Positions 1 to 64,000 of a stretch of 64,000 nucleotides of DNA are shown here, piece after piece. Position 1 is the stretch's first letter; each line of letters starts with the position of its first letter. Made by a program: the position numbers and the translations under genes. Origin of the DNA: Akkermansiaceae bacterium (GTDB lineage Bacteria > Verrucomicrobiota > Verrucomicrobiia > Verrucomicrobiales > Akkermansiaceae); contig CAIVSK010000266.1 in NCBI GenBank assembly GCA_903908495.1, positions 4,674 through 68,673 of the forward strand. Direction: 5' to 3'. The notes beneath the pieces were generated by a model. The model ran no database searches, had not been told where the DNA came from, and was given only the letters and a program-made list of their open reading frames with translations.

Positions 1-32
1 TGCTGACACCGGGGGCCGACATCGTCGCGCCC

Positions 33-2858
33 GTGGCCATAGTGCGCACGGAAGGGCGGGTGGAGGCGGCCGCCGCGTTGCTGCGCGAGGACGGCAAGGG
101 TTGCCGGTTGACGTATGACAAAACCGGTGCCAAGCCGGTGGTGGTGCTGGATTTCGGCAAGCAGAGTGTGGGTGGTTATGCGGTCTTCACGGTCACCGCC
201 AAGAGCGGTCAACCGGTGCTGCGCCTGGCCTACGCCAATCACCCCGACGGTCTATCCGAAACCGGTGATTTTTCCCGCGAGAGCAGCGCGCGCTACCTCG
301 GGCCGGCCGTCGACCTGCCGGTGTTGCCAGGCAACGTCAACCGGCACGAGACCTACACGATTCCGCGCAGCGGCCGCTTTATCGCACCGCTGATCCAAGG
401 CCAGGCGCGCTACGTGCGGCTGCAACTCGACACGCCGGGCACTTCGGTGGACATCGACTCGTTGGCGATGGCCAACAGCGGGGTGTACGACCGTTCGCCG
501 CACGACGGGTTGTTCTTGTGCAGCGACGAGCGGCTCAACCGGCTCTGGTACATCAGCACCTGGACGCTGCAAATCGCCTCGTTCCCGAACCATGACGCGT
601 GGAAAACCGTCGATGGCTGGCTGCTGCCGCGCAAGTTGGAGCAGGCCGATGAGGTCGGACTCAGCGTGGCCGGCGCGGGGTGGGGGGATGTGACCCTCGA
701 GACGACCTTCGAGTTGCGGAGCAACCCGCATCACGTGTCCGCGGCAGGCGTCGCGTTCAGGGCGCAGGACGCGGGCAATACCTATCTGGCAGAAGTCGCG
801 CTCGACGGCGCGTTCCGGTTGGTCCGCCGGCAGGCTGGCAAGGATACGATCCTCAGCGAGAAGCGGCTGGCGGCGCAACTCATCGATGGCGTGCAGTACC
901 ACCTGAAAATCGAGGCCCGCGGGGCCGTGCTGACGACGCTGTTGGATGGTGTGACGATCGACCAGACGCGCGACGCGGTGTTTGCGAGTGGGCGGGTGGG
1001 TTTCTACACGCCGAAGGAAAAGTGGCCGCTGTTCGACGGGATCCGCGTCTGCGACGGCAAGGGGCAGGTGCTGTTAGCCGACGACTTCGGCGGAGATCTA
1101 TCCAAGTGGCAGTTCGCGCGGACGCTGTCGTTTGTGGCCGACGGCGCCAAGCGCGACCGGTTGATCTGGTCGGGCGACCTGTACTTCGGCCAACGCAGCG
1201 CCTACTACGCGTTTGCGAAGCCGACGTATCTGCGCGACTCGCTCAAGATGCTCGCGTTCAACCAGACGCCGGACGGATATGTGCACGCCTCGCCCTATCC
1301 GGAGCGCAGTGTGCCGCCGGCTGCCGGCGATTACGGTCCTTTTCCCTCCGACGAATTCGCTGCCTGGCTGGTGCCCGTCGCGTGGGAGCATCTGCTCTAC
1401 ACCGACGATACCGCGACGTTGCGCCAGATCTACCCGGCGATCAAAAAGTTGCTAGGATATCTGACCGCGCACATCGGTGCCAACGGATTGTTTGTGCAGC
1501 GCCCCGAGACATCCAAGCACGCGGGCAACCTGGGCGTGGGAGACGTCCGCACGCGCAGTTATATGAATATTTTGTTGTGGGGTGTGTTTACCGACGCCGC
1601 CCGCATTGCCGGTCGCTTGGACCTGGCCGGGGACCGCGCCGAGGCGGAAGAAAAGGCGGCCGCCATCAAGCAGGCGTTGTATGAAAACCTGTGGGACGAG
1701 GCGCACGGGTGTTTCAAAGACGCGCTGGAGACCCCGGGCTTCGGTCCCGAGGCCAATGCGCTGGCACTCTCGCTCGGCCTGGTGACCCAGGCGCAGGCGC
1801 TGCGCATCGTGCCGCATTTCAGCAAGATCGGCCACGGCAAATTCCAGAGCCTGGCCAGTCGCGGCCAATTTGAATACGGCTTCGCACAATCCGGGCTGCA
1901 GACGATTCTCGACCACAATTGGTTGCGGTTGCTTGACGACGGATGGAAGGGCGCGAGCACGGTGACGGAATGCATGACTCTGCTGACAAGCGGATGGGGC
2001 GACGACTCGCATCCGGACGCCGCGATCGCGGATCACTTCAGCGCCTATCTGCTAGGCGTGAGACCGACCGCACCGGGGTTCGCAACCTTCAGCGTGAAGC
2101 CGCAAGCGACGCGCGAAGTGCGCTGGGCCAAGGGAGTGGTGCCCACGCCGCACGGCCCGATCAGCGCGGCCTGGGAACTAACAAATTCCGCGCTGAAGCT
2201 GGCCCTGACGGTGCCCAAGGAGACCACTGCGGACGTCATTCTGCCGCAGGGCGGGCGCGTCACAGTCAATGGCAAACCCGCCAGTTGTGCGGGGCTGGCG
2301 GCCGGGGTCTATCAAATCGAAGTGAGCGGCTTGGCGGCAGGGGTGTGGGCGGATCCGACCGACCGGCAAGCGGATGTGGAGAAAGAACTCAAGCCGGTGG
2401 TCAAGGCGTCGAGTTCGCATGAGGCGGGCGGGTGGGGGATAGGCAACTTGTTTGCCGCGCCGGGCGATGGCGGCAAAAAGGGCTACAGTTCGAAGCCTGA
2501 TGCGACGGACAAGGCCGTGGAGTGGCTGGAGTTTGACTTGGGAGCGGAGACGACACTTGCCAAAATCGTGTTGTTGCCGCGAGCGGACGACACGGCGGCG
2601 GGCAAGCCGGGGATCGGGTTTCCGCGCGACTTCACGGTGCAACTGGCGAAACAACCGGGTGCCTTCACCACCGCCGCGACCTACACCGACTGTCCTGCCC
2701 CGGACGGACGCGGCCTGAGCGTGAACCTCTACACGGTCATCGGCTTTCCCTCGGCGCGCTACGTCCGCATCGCCGTCAGCCGCCTCGGCGAAGCCGCCCC
2801 GGACGAACCGGGCCTGCATCGCCTGCAATTTTCCCGCGTGCGGCTGCTGCGGCCGTGA
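33..2858 (+). CDS. Glycoside hydrolase, alpha-L-rhamnosidase-like (GH78-type six-hairpin) with an inserted LamG/concanavalin-like module and a C-terminal F5/8 type C (discoidin) domain; probably 5-prime partial
   Basis: 941-aa ORF. Segments RLIWSGDLYFGQRSAYY and AWLVPVAWEHLLYTDD..IYPAIKKLLGYL fit (alpha/alpha)6 rhamnosidase-type catalytic domains. Residues about 215-340 look like a beta-sandwich lectin module. The last 150 aa (EWLEFDLG..ARYVRIAV) are discoidin-like. The frame has no stop between nt 3 and 33, so the start may lie upstream of the window. Confidence 0.6.
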   Translation: MAIVRTEGRVEAAAALLREDGKGCRLTYDKTGAKPVVVLDFGKQSVGGYAVFTVTAKSGQPVLRLAYANHPDGLSETGDFSRESSARYLGPAVDLPVLPGNVNRHETYTIPRSGRFIAPLIQGQARYVRLQLDTPGTSVDIDSLAMANSGVYDRSPHDGLFLCSDERLNRLWYISTWTLQIASFPNHDAWKTVDGWLLPRKLEQADEVGLSVAGAGWGDVTLETTFELRSNPHHVSAAGVAFRAQDAGNTYLAEVALDGAFRLVRRQAGKDTILSEKRLAAQLIDGVQYHLKIEARGAVLTTLLDGVTIDQTRDAVFASGRVGFYTPKEKWPLFDGIRVCDGKGQVLLADDFGGDLSKWQFARTLSFVADGAKRDRLIWSGDLYFGQRSAYYAFAKPTYLRDSLKMLAFNQTPDGYVHASPYPERSVPPAAGDYGPFPSDEFAAWLVPVAWEHLLYTDDTATLRQIYPAIKKLLGYLTAHIGANGLFVQRPETSKHAGNLGVGDVRTRSYMNILLWGVFTDAARIAGRLDLAGDRAEAEEKAAAIKQALYENLWDEAHGCFKDALETPGFGPEANALALSLGLVTQAQALRIVPHFSKIGHGKFQSLASRGQFEYGFAQSGLQTILDHNWLRLLDDGWKGASTVTECMTLLTSGWGDDSHPDAAIADHFSAYLLGVRPTAPGFATFSVKPQATREVRWAKGVVPTPHGPISAAWELTNSALKLALTVPKETTADVILPQGGRVTVNGKPASCAGLAAGVYQIEVSGLAAGVWADPTDRQADVEKELKPVVKASSSHEAGGWGIGNLFAAPGDGGKKGYSSKPDATDKAVEWLEFDLGAETTLAKIVLLPRADDTAAGKPGIGFPRDFTVQLAKQPGAFTTAATYTDCPAPDGRGLSVNLYTVIGFPSARYVRIAVSRLGEAAPDEPGLHRLQFSRVRLLRP

Positions 2859-2913: not shown

Positions 2914-3516
2914 TTACGCCACCTCGATTTTCAAACTCGGATCGGTCTCACAGGCGTCGATGATAGCGTTATAGCGGGCGACCAGAGCTATGAAACTGTG
3001 GCGGCGTTGGTTGCCGTCGAAATCAGTCCATTCGAGCATGTTGGCAACGAGGAACTGAGTAATGTCAAGGACTTCCAAGCGACGGCTGATGCCCTCTTCC
3101 TCGGCCAAGGTTTCCGCTTGGGCCGCACCGGCGTTGGTGGAGACGATGAGGGGGCGGAGGCCACGGTCGAGATTGTCGCGGCACTTTTGGAGAAGAAGTT
3201 TCCCGGGAGCTGTGGTGACGTGGATGACACAATCACCAAACTGAAAGTTTCCCACGCGCCCGGTTGGGGAGTCGGAGACAGAGTATCCGCAGTGATTGAT
3301 GGCTTTACCGGGATACAGCGTTTCAAGTTTAGCTCCAACGAGGTGCTGCATCACCAGGCTCAAAATGCTCCCGCCGCATTCGCGGCTTCTGCGCCGCCTT
3401 GCGTCGGCAAACAATGACGTCAGGCATGATTTGATAGACTCACCCTCTGCCAAGACTAACCTCAGAGATGGAGAGGACGGTGGTAAGTTGCATGTTGTGG
3501 AGTTCATCGTGGGCAT
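2914..3516 (-). CDS. Putative type II restriction endonuclease (DUF4928 / BsuBI-PstI-like catalytic core)
   Basis: 200-aa ORF inside a roughly 50-55% GC islet. The core MQHLVGAKLE..GNFQFGDCVIHVTTAPG..KCRDNL resembles the conserved region I remember for DUF4928 and BsuBI/PstI endonucleases. Not verified by any search. Confidence 0.5.
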   Translation of the reverse strand: MPTMNSTTCNLPPSSPSLRLVLAEGESIKSCLTSLFADARRRRSRECGGSILSLVMQHLVGAKLETLYPGKAINHCGYSVSDSPTGRVGNFQFGDCVIHVTTAPGKLLLQKCRDNLDRGLRPLIVSTNAGAAQAETLAEEEGISRRLEVLDITQFLVANMLEWTDFDGNQRRHSFIALVARYNAIIDACETDPSLKIEVA

Positions 3517-3529
3517 TCCATTGGAGTAT

Positions 3530-4300
3530 TCATGCCGGAACCCTGGCGTGCCAGGTTTCGGAGATTTGCTGGCGCTCTCGGCGTGTGAATTCGAGACCTT
3601 GGACCAGCGGGTTCTGGAAGAGGGAGAGCACCGGGCGCTCGTTGAAGTTCCTCACGACGCAGAGATAATACCGGTCCTGAAGGTATTCAGCAACCTGATG
3701 TTCCTTGCTGGTCATCATGACGTCTCCACCGGCACCGGCGATCCCTTTGACTTCAACTGCGAGAAAGGGGCGTGAATCTACTGGTTGCAATCGGAAATCG
3801 AAGCCGCAACCGTAGCGAGTGACATTGGTGAGAGCGTGTTCATTGAACTCTGAAAGCTTTGGGAAGGATGATTCGAAGAATCCTTCGGCGGCCGCGCCGG
3901 TGATGAGGCGTCTGGAGAAGGAATCGTTTTCGAAATTGCTCTCATCGATTGCAGCAAGCTCGTCCATGCCTTCCGGTAGGGGCATCACAGGGGGCAGGAG
4001 CAATGGAGACAACAAGCGGGAAAAATCGAACAATGAGAGGTGTCCAAAACGTTCGAAAGCATCGCGACAGTGAGCGCGCACTTCGCGCTTATGCCAGCCT
4101 TTGCGGTTGTTTGGAAAGAGCGGGTCAAATTCCTGCATGTAATTCTTGATCGAGGCGGGCCTGCCACCCAACGCATATCCAATGGCGTTGTAAGCTTCCC
4201 CAAAACTGGTAAATCCCAAGTGCTGAAGTCCATCCTGACTAAACTTGGATAGGAACATTCCGGCGAGCATCAGGCACTCACGTTGGGAGAAAGGTTTCAT
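3530..4300 (-). CDS. DUF3883-like (restriction-endonuclease-fold) protein with an unassigned N-terminal domain
   Basis: 256-aa ORF. The C-terminal half (GCGFDF..FLAVEVKG..MTSKEHQVAEYL..YYLCVV) fits the DUF3883 E-x-K nuclease-like core. The N-terminal 120 aa (..NYMQEFDPLFPNNRKGWHKR..) are not recognised. Its ATG overlaps the stop of the upstream methyltransferase fragment (ATGA). Confidence 0.5.
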   Translation of the reverse strand: MKPFSQRECLMLAGMFLSKFSQDGLQHLGFTSFGEAYNAIGYALGGRPASIKNYMQEFDPLFPNNRKGWHKREVRAHCRDAFERFGHLSLFDFSRLLSPLLLPPVMPLPEGMDELAAIDESNFENDSFSRRLITGAAAEGFFESSFPKLSEFNEHALTNVTRYGCGFDFRLQPVDSRPFLAVEVKGIAGAGGDVMMTSKEHQVAEYLQDRYYLCVVRNFNERPVLSLFQNPLVQGLEFTRRERQQISETWHARVPA

Positions 4301-4662
4301 CTGCCGATAACTTTAACAAATACAGGCATTTCATCAAGGACCCGCAGCCACTCCCAAAACAGCCCGCTACGGGAGGCGGCGAGCCCGCCCATCTTCCCGG
4401 CAAGGGAGAGATCCTGGCATGGGAAGCTGGCCCAGACGATGTCGCCCTTGGGAATGGTGGCACCGCGAACGTGTTCGATGGAGCCGAGGTGGAAGTGATC
4501 GCTGCCATGGTTCGCAGTGTAAACGGCTGCTTTCTTCGGACAAATATCGTTCGACCAGATGGAAACACAGGCGTGCTTGCCGCCCTGGGTGACAAGACCG
4601 CTGCCGGCGAAGAAATCGACGAATGCTGGGGGGCGTGCGTTCATGAGTTCAAATGAACACAT
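4297..4662 (-). pseudogene. Truncated DNA (cytosine-5) methyltransferase, N-terminal third only
   Basis: 121-aa ORF with C5-MTase motif I (FVDFFAGSGL), motif IV (SFPCQDLSLAG) and the GLFWEW helix. It stops (..MPVFVKVIGR*) where motif VI (ENV) should start. Motifs VI-X and the target recognition domain are absent in all frames downstream. Confidence 0.65.
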
Positions 4663-11183: not shown

Positions 11184-11432
11184 ATGGCTGAAGAACCCGT
11201 CGTGTGTGATACCAAACCGTTAGCCCTTGAAGTTGAAGCCGGAACCTATTGGTGGTGTGCCTGCGGGCGGGCTGCCAATCAGCCGTTTTGCGATGGCTCC
11301 CACAAAGGCACCGGCCTCCAACCGGTGAAATTCGAGGTCGCCGAAAAAACCACCGTGTGGTGGTGCCAGTGCAAGCAGACCGCCGGCGCGCCGCTTTGCG
11401 ATGGTTCGCACAAGAAACTGCGCACGCCTTGA
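11184..11432 (+). CDS. CDGSH iron-sulfur domain protein (two CDGSH motifs)
   Basis: MAEEP..WWCACGRAANQPFCDGSHKG..WWCQCKQTAGAPLCDGSHKK. Start at ATG 11184. Confidence 0.9.
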   Translation: MAEEPVVCDTKPLALEVEAGTYWWCACGRAANQPFCDGSHKGTGLQPVKFEVAEKTTVWWCQCKQTAGAPLCDGSHKKLRTP

Positions 11433-11460
11433 GCCAGAGGGGCAGGGGCGGTAGGCCCAC

Positions 11461-14361: not shown

Positions 14362-14519
14362 GGTTTAGTCGGGGTCGCAAGAATGGCAATTGAATACAGG
14401 GTGGGCATCCCTCAAAAAACTTTCTGGCTTTACTTGCTTCCTGCCCCGGCGTCTCCTATCCTAACCGCTTCACGTTAGGAAAGAGTCAATCCCCCCAAAG
14501 CCAAGTCGCATCAACCAGC

Positions 14520-16715
14520 ATGTCAAACAAAGCCATAAGAATCACCCTCGGGACAGTGATCATAGTCGCTGCGATCCTGGGATTCATGCGTTTCAGCAGA
14601 TCCATGTCTGAAGCCAAGTTGGACCCGCTCCGTTGGACCCAACAAGCAGGCACGGGCGATGCCTTGGCCCAGGCCTATCTGGGGCACGCTCTGTATCAAG
14701 GGTATATGAGCAACTACGGACTCAAAATGGACCGGCCCAAAGGCGTCGACTGGATCAATCAGTCTGCCACTGCAAACCATCCACTCGGCCTCTGTCTGAG
14801 GGGGCTCTTGCGGATCGGTGCCTGCACCAGTGGCAGCCGCGTCAAGCTGGATGATGCATCGGCGCAACAGGATTTCAAGGCGGCGGTGGGTCGAGGATTG
14901 CTTCGGGATGCTGAATCCGGGGGGCCTGTGTGGTGGCTCGTTGTCGGCCGGGCCATCGAGCTGAAATGTGTAACTGCGGACGATGGTCGCCCGGCGGCGG
15001 CGTGGTATCGGAAGTCGGCCGATGCTGGGAACTCGGAAGGAATGAGGTTGCTGGCGGGATGTTACACCCAAGGCACTGATTTGGAAAAAGATCCTTCTCA
15101 GGCGGAAAAATGGCTCCGCAAGTCCGCGGAGGCGGGATCTCCCGATGGAATGTATTTGCTCGGTAACTATTACGACTCTGGAACCAATGCCGTGGAAAAC
15201 GAACCATTGGCAGCGCAATGGTATCTGAAAGCTGCGGAACTGGGTCATGCATCGGCCCAATATCGTGTTGGGCTGTGTTTCGAATTGGGAATTGGCAAAC
15301 CACAAGACGAGTCAACGGGCCTGAAGTGGTTGCTGATGTCTGCGGAACAAGGATTGGCAGATGCCCAATCCTATCTCGGTAAACACTACATCGGAAAAAA
15401 GGATGATATGGAAGCGGCCAAGTGGTACCGCAAGGCTGCCGAACAAGGAGACCCAAACGATCAATTCGCCATGGGGAATTTCTATGCCGATGGCAGGGGA
15501 CTCCCAAAGAACTTGGACGAGGCGGCGCGTTGGTATAGAAAGTCCGCTGACCAAGGGTGCGCGCACGGCCAGCTTGCCATCGGTGCTTGCTATGAAAATG
15601 GCGCAGGAGTGGAGACGAGCAGGCGGGACGCCATGAAATGGTATCGCCTCGCGGCGGATTCCGGCGATGCCGATGCCATGTACCGTCTTGCCATGTGCCA
15701 TGATTCGGTCATTGGCGTGGAAAGCAATCCGGACGAAGTCCTCAAATGGTTGCGCAAAGCATCCGATGCCGGTCAACAGGATGCTCGCAGCAAGCTTGAA
15801 TCCATTCTCAAGCTGGATAAATCCGAGACTGCCGGCTCGCCCAAACCCGCTCCGATTGAAACGGCTGCCGTCGACACCGATCCGACAAGGAAGTCCGGCC
15901 CAGGCGAGAAGCTCACTGGCAAAGCGCTGGAAACTAGAGCAGACTCTGAAAAGAAAGTCATCGCAGCATTGGGAGTCTTCAAAAAAGCAACGCTGGAGGA
16001 GGCCAAGGAGGTGGTTCGATTGCTCGAAGCCGCCCAGAAAATCGATCCTGGAAACGAGGGGATTCCGAAGCTCGAAGACATCATCAAGGAGGTTTTCCGG
16101 GAAGAGGCGGGCTTGAAAAAATCGCTCTCCGATCGCAAAGAGGCTGACGCCCAGTATGAGGCTAAAATGAAGAATCTGGAAATCGTATTAACGCCCTCAA
16201 GGCTGCACGGAAAAGTGGATGTGAATGAAGCAACCCGGCTCAAAAGTGAAGCCGATGAGATCATTCCCAAAGCCGAGAAGGTGATTGAAGCCAGCCGCTC
16301 ACGGCTGGCCAGCTCACTCAGCAGCGCCGCTAAAGAAATCCCCCCTCCGGAACGCGAGATTCTATCGCCTACATGGAATGCCATCGCCACTCGCAGCGGA
16401 ATTCAAGCATCACCGGGTACTGGAACTTATGCGGCTGTCCCGGTCGCACCTAAAATCCCCGTCATCAAAATCATTTCGGCGATCTATGGCAGCGGCGGAA
16501 AAAACGCGGATGTCACCGCGCGTGTGACTGAACTGGTTGAGGTCAAGCACCAGACTTTCTCTGCCAACCCCGGTAATTTGGGGACCGATCCGAATCCGGG
16601 CTGGAACAAGGGTCTTACCATTGTCTATACGGTTAACGGTGTGCGCTGCGAACAGCATCGAAATGAAAACGAAACCATCCTGATAGAAAGTTTCAATCCG
16701 CCACCGACACCCTGA
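14520..16715 (+). CDS. Sel1-like (SLR/TPR) repeat protein with a coiled-coil region and an unassigned C-terminal beta-rich domain
   Basis: N-terminal membrane anchor. About nine repeats of the A..WY.KAAE.G...AQ..LG..Y..G.GV type. K/E-rich central region. C-terminal IKIISAIYGSGGKNADVTARV..TIVYTVNGV module. GC is visibly lower (about 50-55%) than the flanks. Confidence 0.8.
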   Translation: MSNKAIRITLGTVIIVAAILGFMRFSRSMSEAKLDPLRWTQQAGTGDALAQAYLGHALYQGYMSNYGLKMDRPKGVDWINQSATANHPLGLCLRGLLRIGACTSGSRVKLDDASAQQDFKAAVGRGLLRDAESGGPVWWLVVGRAIELKCVTADDGRPAAAWYRKSADAGNSEGMRLLAGCYTQGTDLEKDPSQAEKWLRKSAEAGSPDGMYLLGNYYDSGTNAVENEPLAAQWYLKAAELGHASAQYRVGLCFELGIGKPQDESTGLKWLLMSAEQGLADAQSYLGKHYIGKKDDMEAAKWYRKAAEQGDPNDQFAMGNFYADGRGLPKNLDEAARWYRKSADQGCAHGQLAIGACYENGAGVETSRRDAMKWYRLAADSGDADAMYRLAMCHDSVIGVESNPDEVLKWLRKASDAGQQDARSKLESILKLDKSETAGSPKPAPIETAAVDTDPTRKSGPGEKLTGKALETRADSEKKVIAALGVFKKATLEEAKEVVRLLEAAQKIDPGNEGIPKLEDIIKEVFREEAGLKKSLSDRKEADAQYEAKMKNLEIVLTPSRLHGKVDVNEATRLKSEADEIIPKAEKVIEASRSRLASSLSSAAKEIPPPEREILSPTWNAIATRSGIQASPGTGTYAAVPVAPKIPVIKIISAIYGSGGKNADVTARVTELVEVKHQTFSANPGNLGTDPNPGWNKGLTIVYTVNGVRCEQHRNENETILIESFNPPPTP

Positions 16716-19488: not shown

Positions 19489-20124
19489 GTGAGCCCGTCA
19501 CCGGTGGAAACATTGCGCCAGCAACTGCGGGAGAAATTCCCGCAGGCGCATGGATTGCGGCCGCAAGCCGGGCCGGTGGAGGCGGTGGCAATGCCGTTGA
19601 CGGTGGCGAGTTTTCCGGCGGGGGCGATTTCGGAGGTGGTTCCTGCCGGGGCGGGTGCCGGCTTGCTGTTGCTGGTGGCCGGGCTGCTGGGGGATCCGGC
19701 GGAGGTCAGCCCGCACCCGCAACTCGTGCTGGTGGACGGGGCGGATGGTTTTGATCCCGCGTCGTTTCCCGGCAATGCCTGCGCGCGCTTGCTGTGGGTG
19801 CGCTGCCGCTCGGCCAGCAGCATGCTCAAGGCGGCCGATTGGCTGCTGCGTGATGGCAATGTGCCGGTGGTTTTGCTGGATGCAAGCGGGCTGGCGCGGC
19901 GCGATCTGGTGGCGCTGCCGGCGTCCGGCTGGTGGCGCTTGAAGCAAGCGGCGGAGGGCAGTGGGTGCCGGCTGGTGGTGCTTGCGCCGTTTCCGTTGGT
20001 GGCGGCCGCGAGCCTGCGCTTGGTGCTGTCGGCCGAGCTCACTCTGGGGGATTTTGATGGTTCGCGCGACGAATTGTTGCAGCGCCTGCGGCCGGTGCCG
20101 CAACGGCTGCGCCAAGCAACCTGA
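19489..20124 (+). CDS. imuA: ImuA-like RecA-fold protein of the SOS mutasome
   Basis: 211-aa ORF (GTG start) immediately upstream of imuB-dnaE2. ..ISEVVPAGAGAGLLLLVAGLL.. is a degenerate P-loop-like region typical of ImuA. Confidence 0.7.
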   Translation: MSPSPVETLRQQLREKFPQAHGLRPQAGPVEAVAMPLTVASFPAGAISEVVPAGAGAGLLLLVAGLLGDPAEVSPHPQLVLVDGADGFDPASFPGNACARLLWVRCRSASSMLKAADWLLRDGNVPVVLLDASGLARRDLVALPASGWWRLKQAAEGSGCRLVVLAPFPLVAAASLRLVLSAELTLGDFDGSRDELLQRLRPVPQRLRQAT

Positions 20125-20133
20125 TGTCCTGCC

Positions 20134-21621
20134 ATGTTTGCCGCCCTGTATATCCCCGATTTCCCCATGGTGGCGGCCCTGCGCGGTCGGCCCGATGCGC
20201 AGGGCCGACCGGGTGCGGTGCTGGCCACTCCGGCGGGGGCCGCCCGCCAGGCGAAACCCGGCTTGCTGGCGGTCAATCCGGCCGCGCGCTTGGCAGGCAT
20301 CGCCGCCGGTTGGCCGCTCAACCGCGCCTTGGTTCGCTGCCCAGACCTGAGGCTGCTGGAGCGCGATCCGGCCGCCGAGGCGGCGCTGCGCGGCGAACTG
20401 ATCCGGATCGCTGACTCGCTCACGCCCGATGTGGAAATCACCGCGCAGGATTGCGTGCTGCTGGACCTGTCGCTGCGCAGCAAAGCACTCATCAGTCCGT
20501 TTGAATCGATCGTTTCAAGCGACTTTGAACTCTTTCATGCTCAATCGGTAACGCCGGATTTAGCGCATTTGGCGGTGCTTCATGAAACGACGCGGGGGAG
20601 GGTGGTGGTGGCGGCGGATTTGGCAGCTCTGCCATTGGAGGTGCTGGGCTGGCTGGCAGGTGGTGGGAGTGGCGGAGGGGAGTTGGACCTGTTGGATGGC
20701 TGGGGGCTGCGGACGCTGGGGGATTTCATGAAGTTGCCGCGGCAGGCGTTGGAGGAGCGGTTGGGCCCGGCGGTGGGCCGCTGGCACGACGTACTGCATG
20801 GCAAAACGTGTCGCTTGCTGCGGCTGCACCGTCCGCCGGAGGCGTTTGCCCAAAGCTTCGATTTCGAGGATCCGGCGGTGTCGTTGGAGTCGCTGGTGTT
20901 TGCGCTCAAGCGGTTGTTGCACACACTCGCGGCGCGTTTGGCGGCACGCCATTTGGCGGCGGCCCGTCTCGACTTGCGGCTGGAGTTGGAATCCGCTGCG
21001 GCCGTCAGCCGGCAACTCCGGTTGCCCGAAGCGCAAACCACGGTCGGGGGGATGCTGGCGCCGCTCCAGGCATGGCTCGAATCGCTGCAACTGGAGGCAG
21101 CTGTGCGCGGGTTGCATCTCGATGCCACAGCCACTTTTGCGACCTCGGCCCAGCGCGAGTGGTTTGGTCGGAGTCTGCCCCAGCCCGAACGTTGGGCGGA
21201 AACCCTCGCCAAACTCGATGCCTTGCTCGGCCCCGGCCAGGTGGGCATTCCTGTGCCGCCCGCATCTCACAAACCCGATGCGTTCACCTTGCATCCTGCG
21301 GCAGGCGCGGCCGGTGGTTTTCCCGCTGCCGGGTTCCGGCCGACGGCGGCGGTGCCGTTGCGCCGGTACCGGCCGCCTTGCGATATCGCCGTGGCCAGCG
21401 AGTCGCGCGACGGCAGGCCGCAGCCGTTGGCCTTGCTCAGCGGTCCGCACCCGGGCCGCATCGTGGATTGGCGCGGACCCTTTCCCGTCTCGGGCAACTG
21501 GTGGGAGCCCGCCGCCGCCTGGCAACGGCTGGAATGGGACGTCCAACTGGAAAGTGGCCACCTGTTGCGGCTGGTCTATCAAACGCCGGAGCTCTGGCAA
21601 CTCGATGGCATTTACCCATGA
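20134..21621 (+). CDS. imuB: ImuB, Y-family DNA polymerase-like protein
   Basis: MFAALYIPDFPMVAALR.. N-terminus and the length (495 aa) are typical of ImuB. Its stop overlaps the dnaE2 ATG (ATGA). Confidence 0.85.
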   Translation: MFAALYIPDFPMVAALRGRPDAQGRPGAVLATPAGAARQAKPGLLAVNPAARLAGIAAGWPLNRALVRCPDLRLLERDPAAEAALRGELIRIADSLTPDVEITAQDCVLLDLSLRSKALISPFESIVSSDFELFHAQSVTPDLAHLAVLHETTRGRVVVAADLAALPLEVLGWLAGGGSGGGELDLLDGWGLRTLGDFMKLPRQALEERLGPAVGRWHDVLHGKTCRLLRLHRPPEAFAQSFDFEDPAVSLESLVFALKRLLHTLAARLAARHLAAARLDLRLELESAAAVSRQLRLPEAQTTVGGMLAPLQAWLESLQLEAAVRGLHLDATATFATSAQREWFGRSLPQPERWAETLAKLDALLGPGQVGIPVPPASHKPDAFTLHPAAGAAGGFPAAGFRPTAAVPLRRYRPPCDIAVASESRDGRPQPLALLSGPHPGRIVDWRGPFPVSGNWWEPAAAWQRLEWDVQLESGHLLRLVYQTPELWQLDGIYP

Positions 21622-24600
21622 GCGCCGCCTTCGCAGAACTCCACGCGCGCTCGGCATTTTCCTTTCTGGATGGCGCCAGCCAGCCGGAGGCCATGGTCCG
21701 TCACGCCGCGAGTCTCGGCTACCAAACCCTCGCCATCACCGATGTGGCCGGATTTTACGGCTCGGCTCGCGCCCATCACGCCGCCCAGGAAGCGGGCATC
21801 CGCGCGGTGGTCGGCAGCGTGCTGGAAATGCCAGACGGCTCGCGTTTGCCGCTGCTGTGCGCCACCCGCGATGGGTACCGGATGTTATCGCGGCATCTAA
21901 CGGACCGGCATCTGGGCGCGGAACACCGCCGTCCCGGCGGTAAGGGCCGGCAGGCGTCCCGCCTGCCCGCCCATGAAACGACAGACTGGAGGCCCGTCGG
22001 CCATGACAGGCAGGATGCCTGTCCTCCGTCCTTCGCCGGCGGGGATTTGATCGCTCTTACCGGCGACCGCGATGGGCCGCTGTGCCGGCCCCTGCTGCGC
22101 GGCGACCGCCAAGGCGCGCTGCAAGCCGCCACTTATTTGTTAGGTTCATTCGGCCGCGACAACGTTTACGTGGAACTCAACCGCCACGGCTTGCGCGACG
22201 ACGGCCGCCTCAACCGCGACTTGGTCGAGCTGGCCGCGCACCTGCGGCTGCCGTTGTTAGCCAGCAACGCGCCCTTGCACGCCACGCGCGGCGAGCGGCG
22301 GCTGGCGGATGCCTTCAGCTGCCTGCGCCATCATGTGGCGTTGGACCACGCGGGGTGTTTGTTAGCGCCGAATGGCGAGCGGCATTTGAAGGCGCCGCGC
22401 GCCATGGCCGCGCTGTTTTCCGACCTGCCGGAGGCGGTTAGGAACAGCCTGCGGCTGGCGGATCGGATCGAATTCACCCTCGAGAACCTCAACTACCGCT
22501 TCCCGGATTTTCCCGACGGACGCGGCCACCCGTTGTCGTTAGGCGAGCAATCGACGTTGCTGCGGCGCCACGTCTATGCCGGGGCCGCGCGGCGTTATGG
22601 GATTTGCAGCAAAAAAGTGCGCGCCCAGCTTGAGCACGAGTTGGCGATGATCCAGAAGCTGGGGTTTCCGGGGTATTTTCTCATCGTCAACGATCTGGTG
22701 GAGTTTGCGCGGGGCCGCGGCATCCTGTGCCAGGGGAGGGGGTCGGCGGCGAACTCGGCGGTGTGTTACGCGTTGGGCATCACCGCGGTCGATCCGGTCG
22801 GCTGCGGCTTGTTGTTTGAACGCTTCCTCAGCGAGAACCGCCAGAGCTGGCCGGACATCGACATCGATTTCCCCTCCGGCGAGCGGCGCGAGGAGGTCAT
22901 CCAACACGTTTTTAAAAAATATGGTGAGCGCAATGCGGCGATGACCGCCAACGTCATCACCTATCGGCGGCGCTCCGCGTTCCGCGAAATGAGCAAGGTG
23001 CTCGGCATGCCTCCCGAGGCGGCCGCACGGTTTTCTAACGGTCCATCAGCATTCCACGGCGAGGGCGGGCAAGATGATGATGATGACGCGGCGGCCGGCC
23101 GCGAGGCGGAGTTCGAGGACCTGGTGGCCGGCATCCTGCCGCCCTCGCACCCCCGGCTGGCCGCGCTGTCCCATCTCTATCATGCGGTGCTCGGCATGCC
23201 GCGCCATCTCGGCCAGCACTCGGGCGGCATGATCGTGTGCGATCACGGCCTCGACGCGGTGGTGCCCTTGCAGCCGGCCACCATGCCCGGCCGCAACGTC
23301 GTGCAGTGGGACAAGGACGATTGCGAGGACCTGGGCATCGTCAAGATAGATTTGTTAGGTCTGGGCATGCTGGCTGCGATGGAGCAGGCGTTGGAGATAT
23401 GTGCCCGCCGCGGCGAGCCGGTGGATCTGGCCACCATCCCGAAGGATGATCCGGCGGTCTTCGAGTTGTTGTGCCGAGCGGACACGGTGGGCACCTTCCA
23501 GGTGGAAAGCCGGGCGCAGATGGCCACCTTGCCGGTGATGCGGCCGGCCACGTTTTACGATCTGGCCATTGAGGTGGCGATCATCCGGCCGGGGCCCATT
23601 GTCGGGGATCTGGTGCATCCCTATCTGAACCGCCGCAACGGCCGCGAGGCGATCGACTATATTCATCCGGATTGTGAGGAGATTCTCAGCCGCACGCTGG
23701 GGGTGCCGTTGTTTCAGGAACAAGTGCTGCGCATGGCGATGGCGGTGGCCGGCTTCAGCGGCGCGGAGGCCGACGAGCTGCGCCGCGCAATGTCCTTCAA
23801 GCGCAGCGATGAGCGCATGGAGCGGGTGAGCGCCAAACTGCGCCTGCGCATGAACGAACGCGGGGTCAGCCCCGGCGTGCAGGAAAAAATCGTCAACTCG
23901 ATCGGTTCGTTCGCATTGTATGGATTTCCCGAGAGTCATGCGATTTCCTTCGCACTGATCGCATATGCGAGTTGTTGGCTCAAGGTGCACCGGCCGGCGG
24001 AATTCTATGCCGGGCTGATCAACAACCAGCCGATGGGATTCTATTCAGTCAACACCCTCATTCAGGACGCGCGGCGTCACGGGCTGCGCATCAAGCCGGT
24101 GTGCTGCCTGCGGAGCGCGGCTCTAACGGAAGTGGAGGACGCCGCCACGCTGCGCCTCGGCCTGCACCGGCTCAAGGGGCTGGGCACCGCCACAATTGCT
24201 AGAATCGTCGCCGAGCGCCAGCGCGAGCCGTTTGCTTCCATCGAGGATTTTCTGCTGCGGGTGCGGCCAGGCACCAAGGAAAAGCGCCTGTTGGCCCAGG
24301 CCGGTGCCTTGAACGAACTGCCGGAAATCGGCCACCGGCGCCAGGCGGCGTGGCAGGTCGAGTTACCCCTGCACGACGACTTGTTGCCGCCCGCTCCGGC
24401 GCACCGCCAGGGGGTGTTGCCAGCAATGACTCCCGCCGAACGGCTGGCGGCCGACATGCTGGCGCAGGGTGCCACCACCGGGCCGCATCCGATGCGCTTG
24501 TGGCGTGAGGCGGCTGGCACTCCGGAAATCCTCCGCGCCCGCGACCTCCAACACCTGCCTAACGGCTTGGCGGTGGCCATCGCCGGCATGGCGATCTGCC

Positions 24601-26554: not shown

Positions 26555-26555
26555 C

Positions 26556-40402: not shown

Positions 40403-40586
40403 CCGGCCCGGAGGATGGACTATGGGCCCGCCGCTGGCAAGGGGGACTCGGCGGAAAACGCGGACTGTGGTCATCGATGCACCTGAATTGGGCCTTTCGG
40501 CCCCAATACAGTCGAGCATGGCTGGGCGTGCCGCTGCAAATCATTGGGGTGGCGGCGTCCTCCCGGCTCCCGGGGGGCTCAATGCC

Positions 40587-41732: not shown

Positions 41733-41808
41733 ACCCCGCGAAACTTAAACCCAAAAAGTCCATCGACGCAATGCCTCAATCCACCTAAAATCCGCGCCGA
41801 CCCCCGCC

Positions 41809-42939
41809 ATGCCAACCGCCCCTCGTTTGCTCATTCTCACCGCCGCCTTCGGGGAAGGCCACAACAGTGCGGCGCGCAACCTTGCCCTTGCCCTCACTGC
41901 CGCAGGTGCCGACGCCCAGGTGTGCGACCCTTGTCTGCTGGCCACCCCCATCCTCACCCAAACCCTCAGCCGGCTCTATCGCTTTGCCACGGATTATCTC
42001 CCGCAAGTGTGGGGGAAAATCTACCATTCCATCGACCGCGTTGATTTCAAGCACAGTGGCACCTTGCTCACCCGCAAGCCCGAAGCGTTGCTGGCCAAGC
42101 TTATTGCCGACTATCAACCCACGGCGATCGTCAGCTCGTATCCACTTTACCCCTATCTGCTGGAACGCATCTTCAACAAGACCGGCACCCGCCTGCCGGT
42201 CTTCACGGTGGTCACCGACTCGATTGAAATCAACTCCGCCTGGCTGCGTGCACCGAGCGATTTCTGGCTGGTCACCGACGCCGCCACCCGCGACTCGATG
42301 GTTCGCAGTGGGCTTCCGGCCGCCCGCATCATCGACACCGGCTTTCCGGTCAATCCGGAATTTGCGCGGCTCACCCCACTCGATCCGGGCGATCCCTGCG
42401 ATCCCTTCCGCGTGTTGTTCTTTCCCACCGCCCGCCGCCACTCCATCGCCTCCTGTGGCACCGCCATCCTCAATGCCTCGCCGGCCGTGCACCTGACCCT
42501 GGTGCTCGGTAAGAACGTCAAGCTGCTGCATCGACACGCCCGCGCCCTGCAACTGGCCTTTCCCGGACGCGTTCGCATCCTTGGCTGGACCCGCCGCATT
42601 CCCCGCCTGCTGACACAACACCACCTCGTCGTCGGCAAAGCCGGCGGCGCCACCGTCCACGAAGCCATCGCGGCGCATTGTCCGATGCTCATCCACCACC
42701 TCGTGCCCGGTCAGGAAGAAGGCAATCTGCGCCTGCTGGAAGCCATTGGCGGTGGCGGGCTTGCCGCCGATCCACGCACCCTTGCAGCTCGCATCCAGGC
42801 CGTTCTCGCCCACCAGGCGGCTCCCTGGCGTGCCATGAAACGCGCGCTCGCCGCCCACAACCGCGACTCCGGTGCCATCGCCGCCGCGCGCTGCATTCTG
42901 CAAAGGCCGGAAAACCTGCAGACTCAGGATGCAAGATAG
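41809..42939 (+). CDS. Glycosyltransferase, MGDG synthase/UgtP-like (GT28)
   Basis: LILTAAFGEGHNSAARNLALAL N-terminal motif and C-terminal ..LVVGKAGGATVHEAIAAHCPMLI.. nucleotide-sugar binding region. Confidence 0.8.
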   Translation: MPTAPRLLILTAAFGEGHNSAARNLALALTAAGADAQVCDPCLLATPILTQTLSRLYRFATDYLPQVWGKIYHSIDRVDFKHSGTLLTRKPEALLAKLIADYQPTAIVSSYPLYPYLLERIFNKTGTRLPVFTVVTDSIEINSAWLRAPSDFWLVTDAATRDSMVRSGLPAARIIDTGFPVNPEFARLTPLDPGDPCDPFRVLFFPTARRHSIASCGTAILNASPAVHLTLVLGKNVKLLHRHARALQLAFPGRVRILGWTRRIPRLLTQHHLVVGKAGGATVHEAIAAHCPMLIHHLVPGQEEGNLRLLEAIGGGGLAADPRTLAARIQAVLAHQAAPWRAMKRALAAHNRDSGAIAAARCILQRPENLQTQDAR

Positions 42940-43005
42940 GAGCGGTTCGGTTTGTTGATTCTTCCCTTGTGTCCCGGGTCATTTTTCCCTCTCTTCCTTT
43001 TCCCC

Positions 43006-43635
43006 ATGACTTTTCTCTTCGATATCGGCCGCGTGCTTCTGGACTTTGATTTCGAGCGTTCGTTGGCCCGCCTGCTGCCGCCTGATGCGACCGACCCGCG
43101 TGCCCGTCTGGAATTATTATTAGATCAGAGGGATGAATTTGAAGCCGGCGCCATCGAGACTGATACCTATATTGCATGGGCCTTGGGCGTGCTTGGCAGC
43201 GGGGCCACCGCCGAGGACTTCCGGCACGCCTGGCGGCATGTGTTCACGCCGATCGAGCCGATGTGGCAGGAGGTGCGCATGCTTGCAGCTGCGGGTCACC
43301 GGCTCATCCTGTTTTCCAACACCAACGCCATCCACTGTCCGTGGATTTTCGAGGTCTTTGCCGATTTCGCGCTGTTTCAAGCCGCGGTCCTCTCGTATCA
43401 AGTCGGCGGCGTCAAGCCCGAGCCGGCGATCTATCAGTACGCCATCGCCACCCACCAACTCGATCCCGCCACCACCCTCTACATCGACGATTTGCCGGCC
43501 AATATCGCCACCGGCCGCAGCCACGGCTTCCGTTGCTTCCAGTACGATCAAGCCAACCATGGCGCATTCCAGCAGTGGCTGCGCGGTGAGCTTGAGCGCG
43601 GGCTTGAAGCCGGTCATGGCGAAATGAAGCTGTAA
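43006..43635 (+). CDS. HAD-superfamily hydrolase (YihX-like phosphatase)
   Basis: MTFLFDIGRVLLDFDFE.. motif I variant, ..LFSNTN.. motif II, ..YIDDLPANI.. motif IV. Start at ATG 43006. Confidence 0.8.
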   Translation: MTFLFDIGRVLLDFDFERSLARLLPPDATDPRARLELLLDQRDEFEAGAIETDTYIAWALGVLGSGATAEDFRHAWRHVFTPIEPMWQEVRMLAAAGHRLILFSNTNAIHCPWIFEVFADFALFQAAVLSYQVGGVKPEPAIYQYAIATHQLDPATTLYIDDLPANIATGRSHGFRCFQYDQANHGAFQQWLRGELERGLEAGHGEMKL

Positions 43636-43696
43636 ACCCGGCACCTACATCCGGCACCTACATAAGGAACGGCATTATGTTCTTGCCGACCGCGGG

Positions 43697-43900
43697 ATGC
43701 CGGACCAGGCGGAGGCGCTCATGGCCGGCTATTTGCGGCGCATGTGCAACCTTGCGCCGATGTTTGTGAAGGAGTTGAAAGAGCGGTCTTCGCGCTGGTA
43801 CAACCGTCACCACGACCGGCGCGGGACGCTGTGGAGAACGCTTCAAAATCGCAGCTACTTGAGCGCGTCGCGGCACCAGGCGAGGGCCATCAGGGCGTAG
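43697..43900 (+). pseudogene. Fragment of an IS200/RAYT-like (Y1) transposase
   Basis: ..MFVKELKERSSRWYNRHHDRRGTLW.. matches the conserved ..F.RWFN.RH.R.G.LW.ERFKS.. block of REP-associated/IS200-like transposases. The expected ERFKS..LE continues only in another frame (ENASKSQLLE). The catalytic HUH and Tyr regions are absent. Its 3-prime end overlaps the convergent gene ending at 43855. Confidence 0.5.
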
Positions 43901-45150
43901 CCGGTGCCGTAGGGGCGGTGGTAGTTGTAGAGTGGATAGTCCCACCACGAACCGTCCTTTTCCTGATGGGACAGGATGATGGCGGCGAGGCGCCTGGCGT
44001 AGGCGGCGTGGGTGGCCTTGGGCAGCAGGCGGGCCGACTCGGTGAAATAGTAGATGCCGTAATAGTAGAAGTAGCCGGCGATGCGGAAAGGAGCCTCATG
44101 TGGTACCGGGCGTTTGCGGCCATTGCTCAGGAAACCTTCGCGGGCCAGAAAACGGTCGGCCCATTCGGTGAGTACCTGGTCGGTCACCAGCGGGTTGCCG
44201 AACACGCGCAGGCAGGCGTTGCAGGCCTGCGAGCGGCCGAGCGAGCCGGCGGGGCGGTTGATGTCGAGGCGCGGCCGGTAGCGATGCTGGAACGAATAGG
44301 TGTAGGAAAAATCCGGGGTGCGTTGATAGTTGATGGAAGCGAGCGCGTGCTTGACGAGTTTGTCATCGAGGGTCACGCCCATGGTGGAGCGGGCCTCGGC
44401 CATGGCTAACAGGACCGTGGCGGTGGTGAACGAGGTGGGCAGGCCGGAGGGTTTCTGAGTGGTCAGGCCGTCGTAAATATCGAGGTAGCCCCAGCCGCCG
44501 TTGACGTCCTCGCTGCGGTTGGCCGTATCCACCTGTTGTTGGGCGAGGCGGGCCCAGGCGGCCTTTTTGGCGGGGTCGGTTTCACGTTGATAGAGGCGGG
44601 CGATGGCGCGCAGGCCATAGGCGTGGCCCCAGGAATTGTAGGTGCAATCCTGGCTGGTGCGGCGCAGGTTCGGCAGTTCGGCGGCGGTCCAGGCGGCGGC
44701 CTTGTCGATGGCGGCGGCGACCTCGGGGCGGGGGTCGGCGGCATCGATCAGGCCGGAGAGAGCCAGCCCGGAGGCACCCGCGCGGAACGCCTGATGGCCA
44801 CCCGGCAGCGGCGCGAAGATGTTGAGGTCCTTGGTTTGGGTGGCGTCACCCCACGAGCCGTTCTTGTTCTGATCGGCTAACAGGAAATCGACGCCGCGGC
44901 GGATCGCCGCGTCCAGCGCCTCGCGGGTGAGTTCCGGGAGCGGCGCGGCAGCGGTGGTCGCCGCGGGTGTGGATTTTTCGCTAGGTTCGGCAGTCGCGGC
45001 GATGGCGAGGCAGCAGGCAAGACCCAAGACCCAAGACGGCGAGACGCAAGACGCAAGATGAAGACGCGAGCGCGAATCGGGCGGGCCCGGAGGCAGGGAA
45101 TGACGGGCCGGAAGATTGCGGGCCGGAAGATTGAAGAAATTGTTGGGCAT
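43855..45150 (-). CDS. Secreted prenyltransferase/squalene-oxidase-repeat (alpha-alpha toroid) protein
   Basis: ..RGVDFLLADQNKNGSWGD.. and ..ILSHQEKDGSWWDYPLYNYHRPYGTGYALMALA.. repeats. The N-terminal 45 codons are built from short DNA repeats, so the exact start is uncertain. Confidence 0.75.
   Translation of the reverse strand: MPNNFFNLPARNLPARHSLPPGPPDSRSRLHLASCVSPSWVLGLACCLAIAATAEPSEKSTPAATTAAAPLPELTREALDAAIRRGVDFLLADQNKNGSWGDATQTKDLNIFAPLPGGHQAFRAGASGLALSGLIDAADPRPEVAAAIDKAAAWTAAELPNLRRTSQDCTYNSWGHAYGLRAIARLYQRETDPAKKAAWARLAQQQVDTANRSEDVNGGWGYLDIYDGLTTQKPSGLPTSFTTATVLLAMAEARSTMGVTLDDKLVKHALASINYQRTPDFSYTYSFQHRYRPRLDINRPAGSLGRSQACNACLRVFGNPLVTDQVLTEWADRFLAREGFLSNGRKRPVPHEAPFRIAGYFYYYGIYYFTESARLLPKATHAAYARRLAAIILSHQEKDGSWWDYPLYNYHRPYGTGYALMALAWCRDALK
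45018..45066. repeat. Period-7 AAGAC-type repeat block (inside the 5-prime end of the 43855-45150 CDS)
   Basis: CAAGACC CAAGACC CAAGACG GCGAGAC GCAAGAC GCAAGAT GAAGACG. It is the inverted counterpart of 45153-45221. Confidence 0.75.
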
Positions 45151-61891: not shown

Positions 61892-61930
61892 ACCCGCACC
61901 TTCACCCAGCCGGACAAGCGGTTGGGCCGT

Positions 61931-62040
61931 GCAGATGTGGACTGCGGTGGCAAGCGCGGCGCGACACCGCTTTGGCTGCGCATGGGCAGCGCAAGTGTGG
62001 ACTGCGTGTGGCAAGCGCCAGCGCGACACCGCTTTGGCTC
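61931..62040. repeat. Repeat family 2, two tandem copies (inverted relative to 56289 and 62168)
   Basis: GCAGATGTGGACTGCGGTGGCAAGCGCGGCGCGACACCGCTTTGGCTGC followed by GCAAGTGTGGACTGCGTGTGGCAAGCGCCAGCGCGACACCGCTTTGGCTC. Confidence 0.8.
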
Positions 62041-62167
62041 GATCGCGGCGCGCCCTGCGGCCTCGACCAGGGCCGGTCCGTCATCAAGCCTCCGCATTCC
62101 CCAGCCAGAGCGATGGGTAAGCGCGAGACGGCTTGGACCTAGCGGGATCCCCGGCTCTCTTTCGGCT

Positions 62168-62219
62168 GAGCCAAAGCGGCGTGGCGGGCTTGCGCCCTTC
62201 CCGCCGCACTCCACACATC
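62168..62219. repeat. Repeat family 2, diverged copy in opposite orientation
   Basis: GAGCCAAAGCGGCGTGGCGGGCTTGCGCCCTTCCCGCCGCACTCCACACATC. Its GAGCCAAAGCGG arm is the perfect complement of CCGCTTTGGCTC at 62029-62040. Confidence 0.7.
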
Positions 62220-62330
62220 GGCTCGCGCAGGGGCGGCGCATTTTTGGGCAGCGCAGGGGGCCGCAGGGAGGAGTGCGGAGTTTCTCGGATGGGGGTTGAT
62301 GCCCGGCGCGTTCCTGCTAAAGTCCGGCCT

Positions 62331-63926: not shown

Positions 63927-64000
63927 CGGCGGGGGCGCTCCTGTCGCCGGGTAAATGAACAGCCTGGATTGAGCGATCTGCTCTATTGTGTCACGGGAGG

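Follow-up and report, generated by a model that had tools for sequence, protein, structure and literature searches.

Why does one pentamer stay common in GC-rich DNA in which the words most like it are scarce? The question is raised by a 64,000-nucleotide stretch of contig CAIVSK010000266.1 (positions 4,674 to 68,673, assembly GCA_903908495.1) from an Akkermansiaceae bacterium, the whole of which we call the window. An earlier note on this DNA, made by eye, had reported that the word CTAAC, read as GTTAG on the other strand, is strongly over-represented there and is spelled with otherwise rare codons, and had proposed that selection acts on the DNA word rather than on the protein. Our analysis shows that a weak, genome-wide and strand-symmetric pressure favours the CTAAC/GTTAG duplex in one uncultured freshwater clade of Akkermansiaceae, and on balance we lean towards reading the word as a self-DNA tag that a lineage-specific DNA enzyme or receptor recognises.

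Results

An exact search of the plus strand of the window returned 53 CTAAC and 34 GTTAG, 87 copies in total, which is close to the 51 and 34 counted by hand. Control words of the same composition gave 7 copies (CTAAG/CTTAG), 16 (GTAAC/GTTAC) and 8 (TTAAC/GTTAA), compared with 8, 12 and 6 by hand, and 17 of the 19 coordinates listed earlier were exact, while 33811 and 53229 should read 33801 and 53230. The C_C context holds 87 of the 337 TAA/TTA trinucleotides of the window, where about 10% would be expected (binomial p = 8e-17). The regional contrast described by eye also holds, with 20 of 47 TAA/TTA inside the word at 21.6-29.8 kb and 0 of 19 at 39.8-44.4 kb. This latter stretch, the longest without a copy, exists as described but is not significant alone (P = 0.12 for a maximum gap at least as large under Poisson spacing). 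The spacing of sites in the window is in fact Poisson-like, with a coefficient of variation of 1.09 and a largest gap of 4.6 kb, and no preferred pair spacing or pair orientation was found among the window sites. The same two values rule out the regular spacing of a mismatch-repair strand signal.

The term over-represented stands relative to coding constraints and to relatives but not relative to base composition (87 copies vs. about 80). Depletion of NTAAN words is usual in GC-rich genomes, and the remaining words of this form are depleted 5-10 times in the window. CTAAC is therefore exceptional because it escapes a depletion that affects the others, not through an excess over base composition.

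Coding constraints were addressed by calling 45 genes in the window and shuffling synonymous codons within each of them. On the coding strand, 12.8 CTAAC were expected and 46 observed (z = 9.7, 3.6-fold), and 10.0 GTTAG were expected and 30 observed (z = 6.6, 3.0-fold), giving a genic total of 76 vs. 22.8 expected and a combined ratio of 3.33, with the next independent pentamer pair at 1.7 or below. Thus the codon-preserving shuffle, which the earlier note had set beforehand as the check that could overturn its claim, did not reproduce the counts. By coding-strand frame, the window sites are spelled CTA-ACN (24), NCT-AAC (22), GTT-AGN (9) and G-TTA-G (21), and another 11 copies are intergenic or at a gene edge. 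The statement that nearly every TTA or CTA codon sits in the pentamer was too strong, as this is the case for 21 of 45 TTA and 24 of 55 CTA codons. The shuffle also revealed other coding-strand biases, including depletion of CTCCT (16 vs. 72.7 expected) and CCTGG (94 vs. 159) and enrichment of GGTGC (166 vs. 87) and CAAGG (159 vs. 92). CTATC is raised on the sense strand only (77 vs. 48 expected) and is up 3-fold compared with the outgroup, where the ratio for CTACC/GGTAG is 0.39.

We then compared spellings, conditioned on the encoded dipeptide, between the clade that bears the trait and outgroup Akkermansiaceae. Leu-Thr is written CTA-ACN in 52/222 cases in the clade and 5/159 in the outgroup, [S/P/T/A]-Asn is written NCT-AAC in 48/333 and 3/256, Val-[Ser/Arg] is written GTT-AGN in 24/337 and 1/241, and G-TTA-G accounts for 43/1350 and 7/1246. 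All four stop-free spellings are therefore 6-17 times commoner in the clade. Outside the word, CTA (2.9% in the clade vs. 2.4% in the outgroup) and NCT (8.3% vs. 8.6%) are unchanged, and TTA before a base other than G stands at 2.1% vs. 1.3% (about 1.7-fold). As four spellings are raised 6-17 fold while the same codons elsewhere are little changed, these results support a pressure that acts on duplex DNA and not on protein or codon usage. Both orientations are enriched to a similar extent, and non-coding DNA points the same way, with 15 copies over 10.5 kb in the clade vs. 5 over 11 kb in the outgroup (p = 0.036), so that the proposal of selection on the DNA word is borne out. Codon usage or codon-pair bias is ruled out by the shuffle and by the dipeptide-conditioned counts. 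Off-frame hidden stops ('ambush' codons) were also rejected, since CTAAA, CTAAG and CTAAT, which contain the same TAA/TAG, show no enrichment. Nor is C-TAA-C preferred at real stop codons (3/17 vs. 2/19).

The word is sharply bounded. The window and its relative L167 together hold 125 CTAAC, compared with 24 CTAAA, 12 CTAAG, 9 CTAAT, 35 ATAAC, 22 GTAAC and 13 TTAAC; both flanking Cs are required, and variants that differ at one position are not enriched, except for the sense-only CTATC. The flanks of 186 pooled sites contribute no more than 0.18 bit (a pyrimidine at -1 and not T at +1), in agreement with the earlier description of the neighbouring bases, as 63 of the 87 window sites have C or T at -1 and only 6 have T at +1. 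A longer or gapped consensus was set aside because the 186 sites show none, and contrasts at k = 6-8 merely extend the core. The two orientations, pooled over the window and L167-L169, number 101 and 85, and site orientation follows a mild coding-strand preference that the shuffle predicts. Relative to replication, the direction of which was inferred from the replicative component of the GC skew at third codon positions (GC3 skew), the window (+0.065) has 53:34 on the plus strand, L167 (+0.123) has 13:25 and L169 (-0.08) has 18:12, so that both relatives disagree in sign with the window on small counts. A Chi-like role, as suggested earlier, predicts replication polarity, and none is consistent across these loci.

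About 140 kb of DNA from the clade, for the most part near three anchor genes, enter the comparison with relatives, for which gene calls are crude and GC3-based. PccB is unchanged on a contig of the metagenome-assembled genome GCA_037140895.1 and in a lake assembly of the European Nucleotide Archive, both of which are 99.6-99.7% identical to the window in DNA. Two independent assemblies at this level of identity keep 30/30 sites. A repeat element or an assembly artefact is excluded by these two assemblies, by site contexts that all differ, and by amino acids that are as in orthologues. The nearest species representative of the window is 'Akkermansiaceae bacterium Tobar13m-G56'. CTAAC/GTTAG is by far the most window-specific pentamer against 27 GC-matched proteobacterial loci (492 kb), which predict 8.1 copies per 64 kb against the 87 seen (z = 26). 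It is also the top pentamer against GC-matched outgroup Akkermansiaceae (GC 0.626 vs. 0.629), which predict 24 copies for the window plus L167, where 125 are found. No enrichment was detected in Haloferula helveola or in the metagenome contigs L163 and L164 (75-80% nucleotide identity), and Luteolibacter sp. GHJ8 (L165) has at most a weak excess (12 copies vs. 27 expected).

Further relatives (L167-L171) were found through the gene for a protein with HEAT and HZS_alpha domains, here called the HEAT protein. L167 carries 38 copies in 18 kb, L168 31 in 14.9 kb, L169 30 in 20 kb and L171 18 in 6.4 kb, against 6 in 24 kb (1-24122) for L170. When 170 sequences were ranked by the ratio of CTAAC to control words, the top eight were all relatives of the window (L171 stood outside the ranking). 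The trait-bearing clade comprises the window, L001/L002, L167, L168, L169 and L171, with a weaker trait in L092 and L003. Since the HEAT protein of L170 matches those of L169 and L171 as closely (0.77-0.78) as these match each other, and L170 is nearly devoid of the word, the trait switches between presence and absence in lineages that are equally related.

Beyond the word, the window plus L167 differ from related genera (L163, L165, L166, L170 and L083) by a broad shift of oligonucleotide signature, with clade/outgroup ratios of 0.55 for GATC, 0.52 for GAAG/CTTC, 0.29 for AGAAG/CTTCT, 0.81 for GA/TC, 1.17 for CA/TG and 3.0 for CTATC. An unrelated metagenome contig, L120 (1-23204), whose DnaE2 is 48% identical, has 53 CTAAC/GTTAG in 23 kb at a GC content of 0.53. 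CTAAC is its commonest NTAAN word with GTAAC close behind (45), and this abundance is probably ordinary for its composition.

Sites have been gained in several ways. Gains start from varied precursor words and need 1-3 substitutions, mostly synonymous with a few that change a residue; GTC CGG became GTT AGG at 26054, for example, and TTG TTA G replaced CTG CTG G at 23354. No single neighbouring word is drained relative to the outgroup (CTGAC/GTCAG 0.9, CCAAC 1.5), which excludes both a hotspot at one position and very-short-patch-type repair. A single-step hotspot such as deamination of 5-methylcytosine in CCAAC or GTCAG was rejected because gains alter different positions, often by 2-3 substitutions, and very-short-patch-type repair because its T-for-C precursors are not depleted.

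To follow loss, the HEAT protein gene was aligned by codon in the window, L167, L168, L169, L171 and L170, with 12, 11, 4, 12, 11 and 1 copies inside the alignment, respectively. The site at column 2703 is common to all five trait-bearing lineages, and several sites are found in four or five. Identity of the motif 5-mer among trait-bearing lineages is 82/200 (0.41), compared with 2/50 in L170 and with 0.18-0.21 for comparable 5-mers with A or T at the third position (naive p = 1e-9). Retention of sites is about double that of comparable 5-mers, although sites still turn over, and the trait persists across more than 20% sequence divergence. We read this retention as a roughly halved loss rate rather than as strong positional constraint, because it comes from one gene and dependent lineage pairs. 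A loss rate of about 0.55 of that of controls and an excess of 3-5 fold would fit a scaled coefficient of about 1-1.6 per site, as estimated from standard mutation-selection-drift formulas rather than fitted.

The propionyl-CoA carboxylase genes pccB-pccA offer a view of accumulation. PccB has 81-85% protein identity, and up to about 82% DNA identity, with orthologues of Burkholderiales and Rhodocyclales, and one Akkermansiaceae species is found among its best 80 genome matches. By these similarities, pccB-pccA looks to have been acquired horizontally from Betaproteobacteria. The 79 proteobacterial orthologues have a mean of 0.4 copies per 3.5 kb and L003, the nearest species listed, has 1, compared with 6 in the window, among them a GTT-AGG (26054) that encodes a conserved Val-Arg and a C-TAA-C (26551) that contains the stop codon of pccB. 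The word appears to accumulate with residence, from about 0 to 6 copies in pccBA, and two low-GC islands of the window are nearly devoid of it, with 1 copy in 34 TAA/TTA together, these two being the only islands available.

Among the genes of the window (Table 1), dnaE2 is the densest, at 11 copies or 3.4 per kb, several of them spelled TTG-TTA-G (Leu-Leu). It closes an SOS-type mutasome cassette of three genes, formed with imuB, identified by its IMS domain, and an upstream 177-aa protein that has no Pfam match and is imuA-like by position; imuB and this upstream gene have 0 copies vs. the 11 of the adjoining dnaE2. Zero or nearly zero copies are found in imuB, atpA, atpG, ilvD and both low-GC islands. 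The DUF4928 match of the first island covers the C-terminal part of the profile only, and its C5-cytosine methylase fragment, of 121 aa, matches profile positions 3-100 only. The island looks like a decayed restriction-modification module, and it is probably foreign DNA without the word. The inverted pair upstream of the second island is perfect and is the sole palindromic arrangement of the word seen; it could be an operator. A GTTAG at 11219 falls inside a small open reading frame (ORF) of CDGSH iron-sulfur type, the motif of which, C-x-C-x-x-...-C-D-G-S-H, was read by eye and which the crude gene call placed in intergenic DNA. The window further encodes a PATR autotransporter, rhamnosidases, a GH95 protein and the atp operon, and these genes, with imuB-dnaE2 and the HEAT protein gene, indicate a verrucomicrobial origin. 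No tRNA genes are present in its 64 kb.

Table 1. Features of the window and positions of the word.
Feature	Coordinates	Strand	Basis	Remarks
CTAAC (53)	2178, 3456, 5058, 6993, 7266, 8916, 8926, 9966, 14091, 14461, 18773, 21897, 23035, 24123, 24559, 24973, 25851, 26551, 27811, 27898, 28867, 29298, 31252, 31509, 32180, 33019, 33801, 34119, 34559, 35208, 36123, 36572, 37143, 37311, 37637, 37904, 39763, 44406, 44877, 47424, 48248, 49948, 50432, 50466, 52056, 53230, 53957, 54853, 55327, 57605, 61380, 63589, 63923	+	exact search	
GTTAG (34)	1073, 7572, 7836, 11219, 11470, 14474, 17488, 18835, 19263, 22139, 22256, 22361, 22437, 22538, 23354, 24731, 26054, 27194, 30469, 32457, 35723, 36899, 37741, 38051, 38965, 39163, 39425, 39699, 45229, 45592, 48004, 54373, 54479, 59744	+	exact search	
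Longest word-free stretch, 4.6 kb	39768..44405			19 TAA/TTA, 0 in word
dnaE2, error-prone DNA polymerase III alpha	21618..24851	+	Pfam PHP, DNA_pol3_alpha, finger, HHH_6, OB	limits from called genes on L001/L002
imuB	20134..21621		IMS domain	
Mutasome cassette	19591..24851			three genes
pccB-pccA, propionyl-CoA carboxylase	25022..28544	+	Pfam	6 copies
HEAT/HZS_alpha-domain protein gene, 1336 aa	35494..39504	-	Pfam	13 copies, 3.2 per kb
Low-GC island (GC 0.54-0.57)	2914..4662	-	Pfam DUF4928, NOV_C, truncated C5-cytosine methylase	1 copy in 17 TAA/TTA
C5-cytosine methylase fragment	4297..4662			within the island above
Sel1-repeat gene, GC 0.55, GC3 0.60	14520..16715	+	Pfam	0 copies in 17 TAA/TTA
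Inverted pair CCTAAC-N8-GTTAGG	14460..14479		read from sequence	intergenic, between divergent genes, upstream of the low-GC Sel1-repeat gene
CDGSH-type ORF	11186..11433		motif read by eye	

Discussion

The reading of CTAAC as a self-DNA tag, which we hold with a confidence a little better than even, would have a sequence-specific protein recognise the entire 5-bp word, because both Cs are required, variants at one position are not enriched and the flanks carry next to no information. Such an all-or-none target is how proteins, and in particular modules of methyltransferase and restriction type, would be expected to read DNA, unlike neighbour-dependent mutation. Copies would accumulate through weak selection or biased conversion, as has been proposed for highly iterated palindrome 1 (HIP1) and for uptake signal sequences, and the pressure would act on native DNA in proportion to its residence time. 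Within this class we favour, tentatively, a HIP1-like recognition module of methyltransferase type, as a sharp asymmetric 5-mer with an on/off distribution is typical of such modules; sites marked in this way may be favoured by repair, recombination or transformation. A direct bias of an uptake receptor, of the kind behind uptake signal sequences, would be a less probable route, and an architectural DNA-binding protein is somewhat less probable still. The weights behind these three routes are rough and overlap, so that their sum lies slightly above that of the class, and the remaining weight falls to something else. More specifically, and only as a possibility, CTAAC may be the first self-DNA tag in Verrucomicrobiota, read by a lineage-specific methyltransferase or by uptake and recombination machinery and spread by a conversion bias when members of the clade exchange homologous DNA.

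The closest known system in behaviour is HIP1 (GCGATCGC), which we take together with the alternate highly iterated palindromes of cyanobacteria. HIP1 is abundant in ORFs, conserved and linked to methyltransferases (PMC4390886, PMC5861425). Its creation and maintenance have been ascribed to methyltransferase-linked repair (PMC4390886) or to selection for chromosome structure (PMC5861425), and it has recently been reported to make natural transformation more efficient in a way that depends on methylation (bioRxiv 10.1101/2024.09.10.611283). CTAAC shares with HIP1 that it is a short word abundant inside ORFs in all frames, that it is lineage-specific with exceptions among relatives, and that its sites are conserved between genomes beyond neutral expectation (here 0.41 vs. 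0.18-0.21, in one gene). Abundance of the HIP type is clear here inside ORFs, and between ORFs it amounts to the 15 vs. 5 copies of the outgroup comparison, equal to composition. The two differ in that HIP1 is a GC-rich, phylum-wide 8-bp palindrome with an excess of 15-300 fold (PMC5861425), whereas CTAAC is AT-cored, not self-complementary, confined to a genus-level clade and 3-5 fold in excess. HIP1 also has a periodicity of 10-90 kb, for which the window here spans 64 kb.

Once genes have been transferred, uptake sequences build up within their coding regions (PMC2817400). CTAAC resembles the uptake signal sequences (USS) of Pasteurellaceae and the DNA uptake sequences (DUS) of Neisseriaceae in that both of its orientations occur, with roughly 1-2 copies per kb, and that genes accommodate it in permissive frames with conserved residues mostly kept. 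It may also share their scarcity in newly acquired genes and their build-up after transfer, as the two low-GC islands and pccBA would suggest; the molecular drive behind these sequences needs no per-site function. Uptake signals reportedly have lineage-specific 'dialects', and their excess is very large. They are, however, 9-12 bp long with extended, graded flanks and imperfect copies, and far more enriched, whereas here the core is a sharp 5 bp, the word exceeds base composition 1.1-fold, the codon shuffle 3.3-fold and the outgroup 5-fold, and copies are no denser in non-coding than in coding DNA. The earlier guess of an uptake signal thus fits in several features and fails in length, in the missing flank consensus and in the modest excess.

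Like Chi, CTAAC is an asymmetric short word, over-represented in core genes and a possible marker of self-DNA, but Chi, usually G-rich, is strongly oriented along the direction of replication, and no consistent polarity was seen for CTAAC. The sites of Type III, IIS, IIG and bacteriophage exclusion (BREX) methyltransferases are likewise asymmetric, 5-6 bp long, all-or-none in specificity and patchy among relatives, and we know of no case in which such sites became enriched in the host genome. Because it fails at least one defining feature of the HIP and uptake-signal families, and because its orientation signs, which bear on Chi, are mixed, we place CTAAC in the general kind of genome-wide enriched recognition words rather than in any of these families.

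Several observations weigh against the word being a self-DNA tag. No candidate agent was identified, the window's only methylase being the truncated C5 fragment in the low-GC island, and nothing ties this fragment to the word. Genomes normally avoid the recognition sites of restriction-modification systems or are neutral to them, rather than enriching them. The window is expected to hold about 80 copies from its base composition (1.1-fold), and the non-coding copies of the clade likewise equal their composition expectation (15 vs. 15.7). The genome-wide scope and the behaviour by replichore are extrapolated from the clade DNA sampled, and the conservation statistics come mainly from one gene with non-independent lineage pairs. 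Literature searches for CTAAC/GTTAG in methylation, uptake or binding brought up no record, only primer sequences and unrelated matches. Lastly, an excess of 3-5 fold is tiny beside that of HIP1 (PMC5861425) or of uptake signals.

The strongest alternative, though we regard it as unlikely, is a neutral shift of genome signature, in which lineage-specific, context-dependent mutation or repair raises the word without any function. It is in line with the parity with base composition, the Poisson-like spacing and the turnover of sites conserved only about twice as well as controls, and the clade does differ in many oligonucleotides (GA/TC, CA/TG, GAAG/CTTC, GATC and CTATC among them, at the ratios given above). 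Such a process would nevertheless need a context 5 nt wide that includes both Cs, as single-end variants are 4-14 times rarer, and it would have to proceed by G to T, C to T, G to A and multi-step changes from different precursors with no single neighbouring word drained. Frequencies of TA, CTA, CT, AA and AC are essentially unchanged, no other word comes near a 5-fold change, and retention above comparable 5-mers isn't expected from a process that only creates sites. Repair of the very-short-patch type is a known cause of oligonucleotide bias, the Vsr endonuclease inflating CCWGG in E. coli in this way, and the window does contain a C5-cytosine methylase fragment. Here a mismatch endonuclease, partnered with a cytosine methylase, would restore CTAAC wherever TTAAC or CTAAT carried a T:G mismatch, but the usable precursors are not depleted relative to the outgroup (TTAAC/GTTAA 0.81, CTAAT/ATTAG 0.96) and their pools are far too small for about 100 extra sites. 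Moreover, gains mostly alter the internal T and A positions and the methylase gene is truncated inside a probably foreign island, so that we give this explanation almost no credence.

A polar motif, read on a single strand by RecBCD/AddAB, FtsK or primase and favoured for its role in protecting or organising the chromosome with respect to replication, seems quite improbable to us. The word is an asymmetric 5-mer, as is the Chi of Bacillus subtilis (AGCGG), it occurs 1.4-2.8 times per kb, it is sparse in the probably foreign islands, as expected of a marker of self, and the plus strand of the window has a mild excess (53:34). Against this, the orientations are enriched about equally once coding constraints are removed (3.6-fold and 3.0-fold) and come to 101 vs. 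85 when pooled, and CTAAC is commoner on the putative leading strand in the window but on the other strand in L167 and L169. An effect at the level of translation, in which codon-pair or rare-codon preferences (TTA, CTA, AGR, NCT) spell the word by chance, is very improbable in our view, even if most copies are genic and contain rare codons, if atpA, atpG and the HU gene, presumed to be highly expressed, carry none, and if CTATC, enriched on the coding strand only, indicates that some codon-context effects exist. It would take four unrelated codon-pair preferences, each up 6-17 fold and all spelling one duplex word, and sense and antisense copies are enriched alike, with the same trend in non-coding DNA.

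Each of the enriched words known as Chi, uptake signals, the FtsK-orienting polar sequences (KOPS) and HIP1 has led to a piece of machinery by which the chromosome is read. To our knowledge, few enriched words have been described, none of them from Verrucomicrobiota and none a non-polar asymmetric 5-mer. If the reading of CTAAC as a self-DNA tag is true, it would bring a system like HIP1 or USS to a new phylum, with a new motif architecture and switched on or off between sister lineages. This on/off pattern makes the question tractable, as the gene content of lineages with the word (the window, L167, L169 and L171) can be set against that of L170, which lacks it; such a comparison should be able to name the gene of the agent. 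The rise of pccBA from about 0 to 6 copies, for its part, provides a natural gauge of how fast a weak pressure at the level of DNA rewrites acquired genes.

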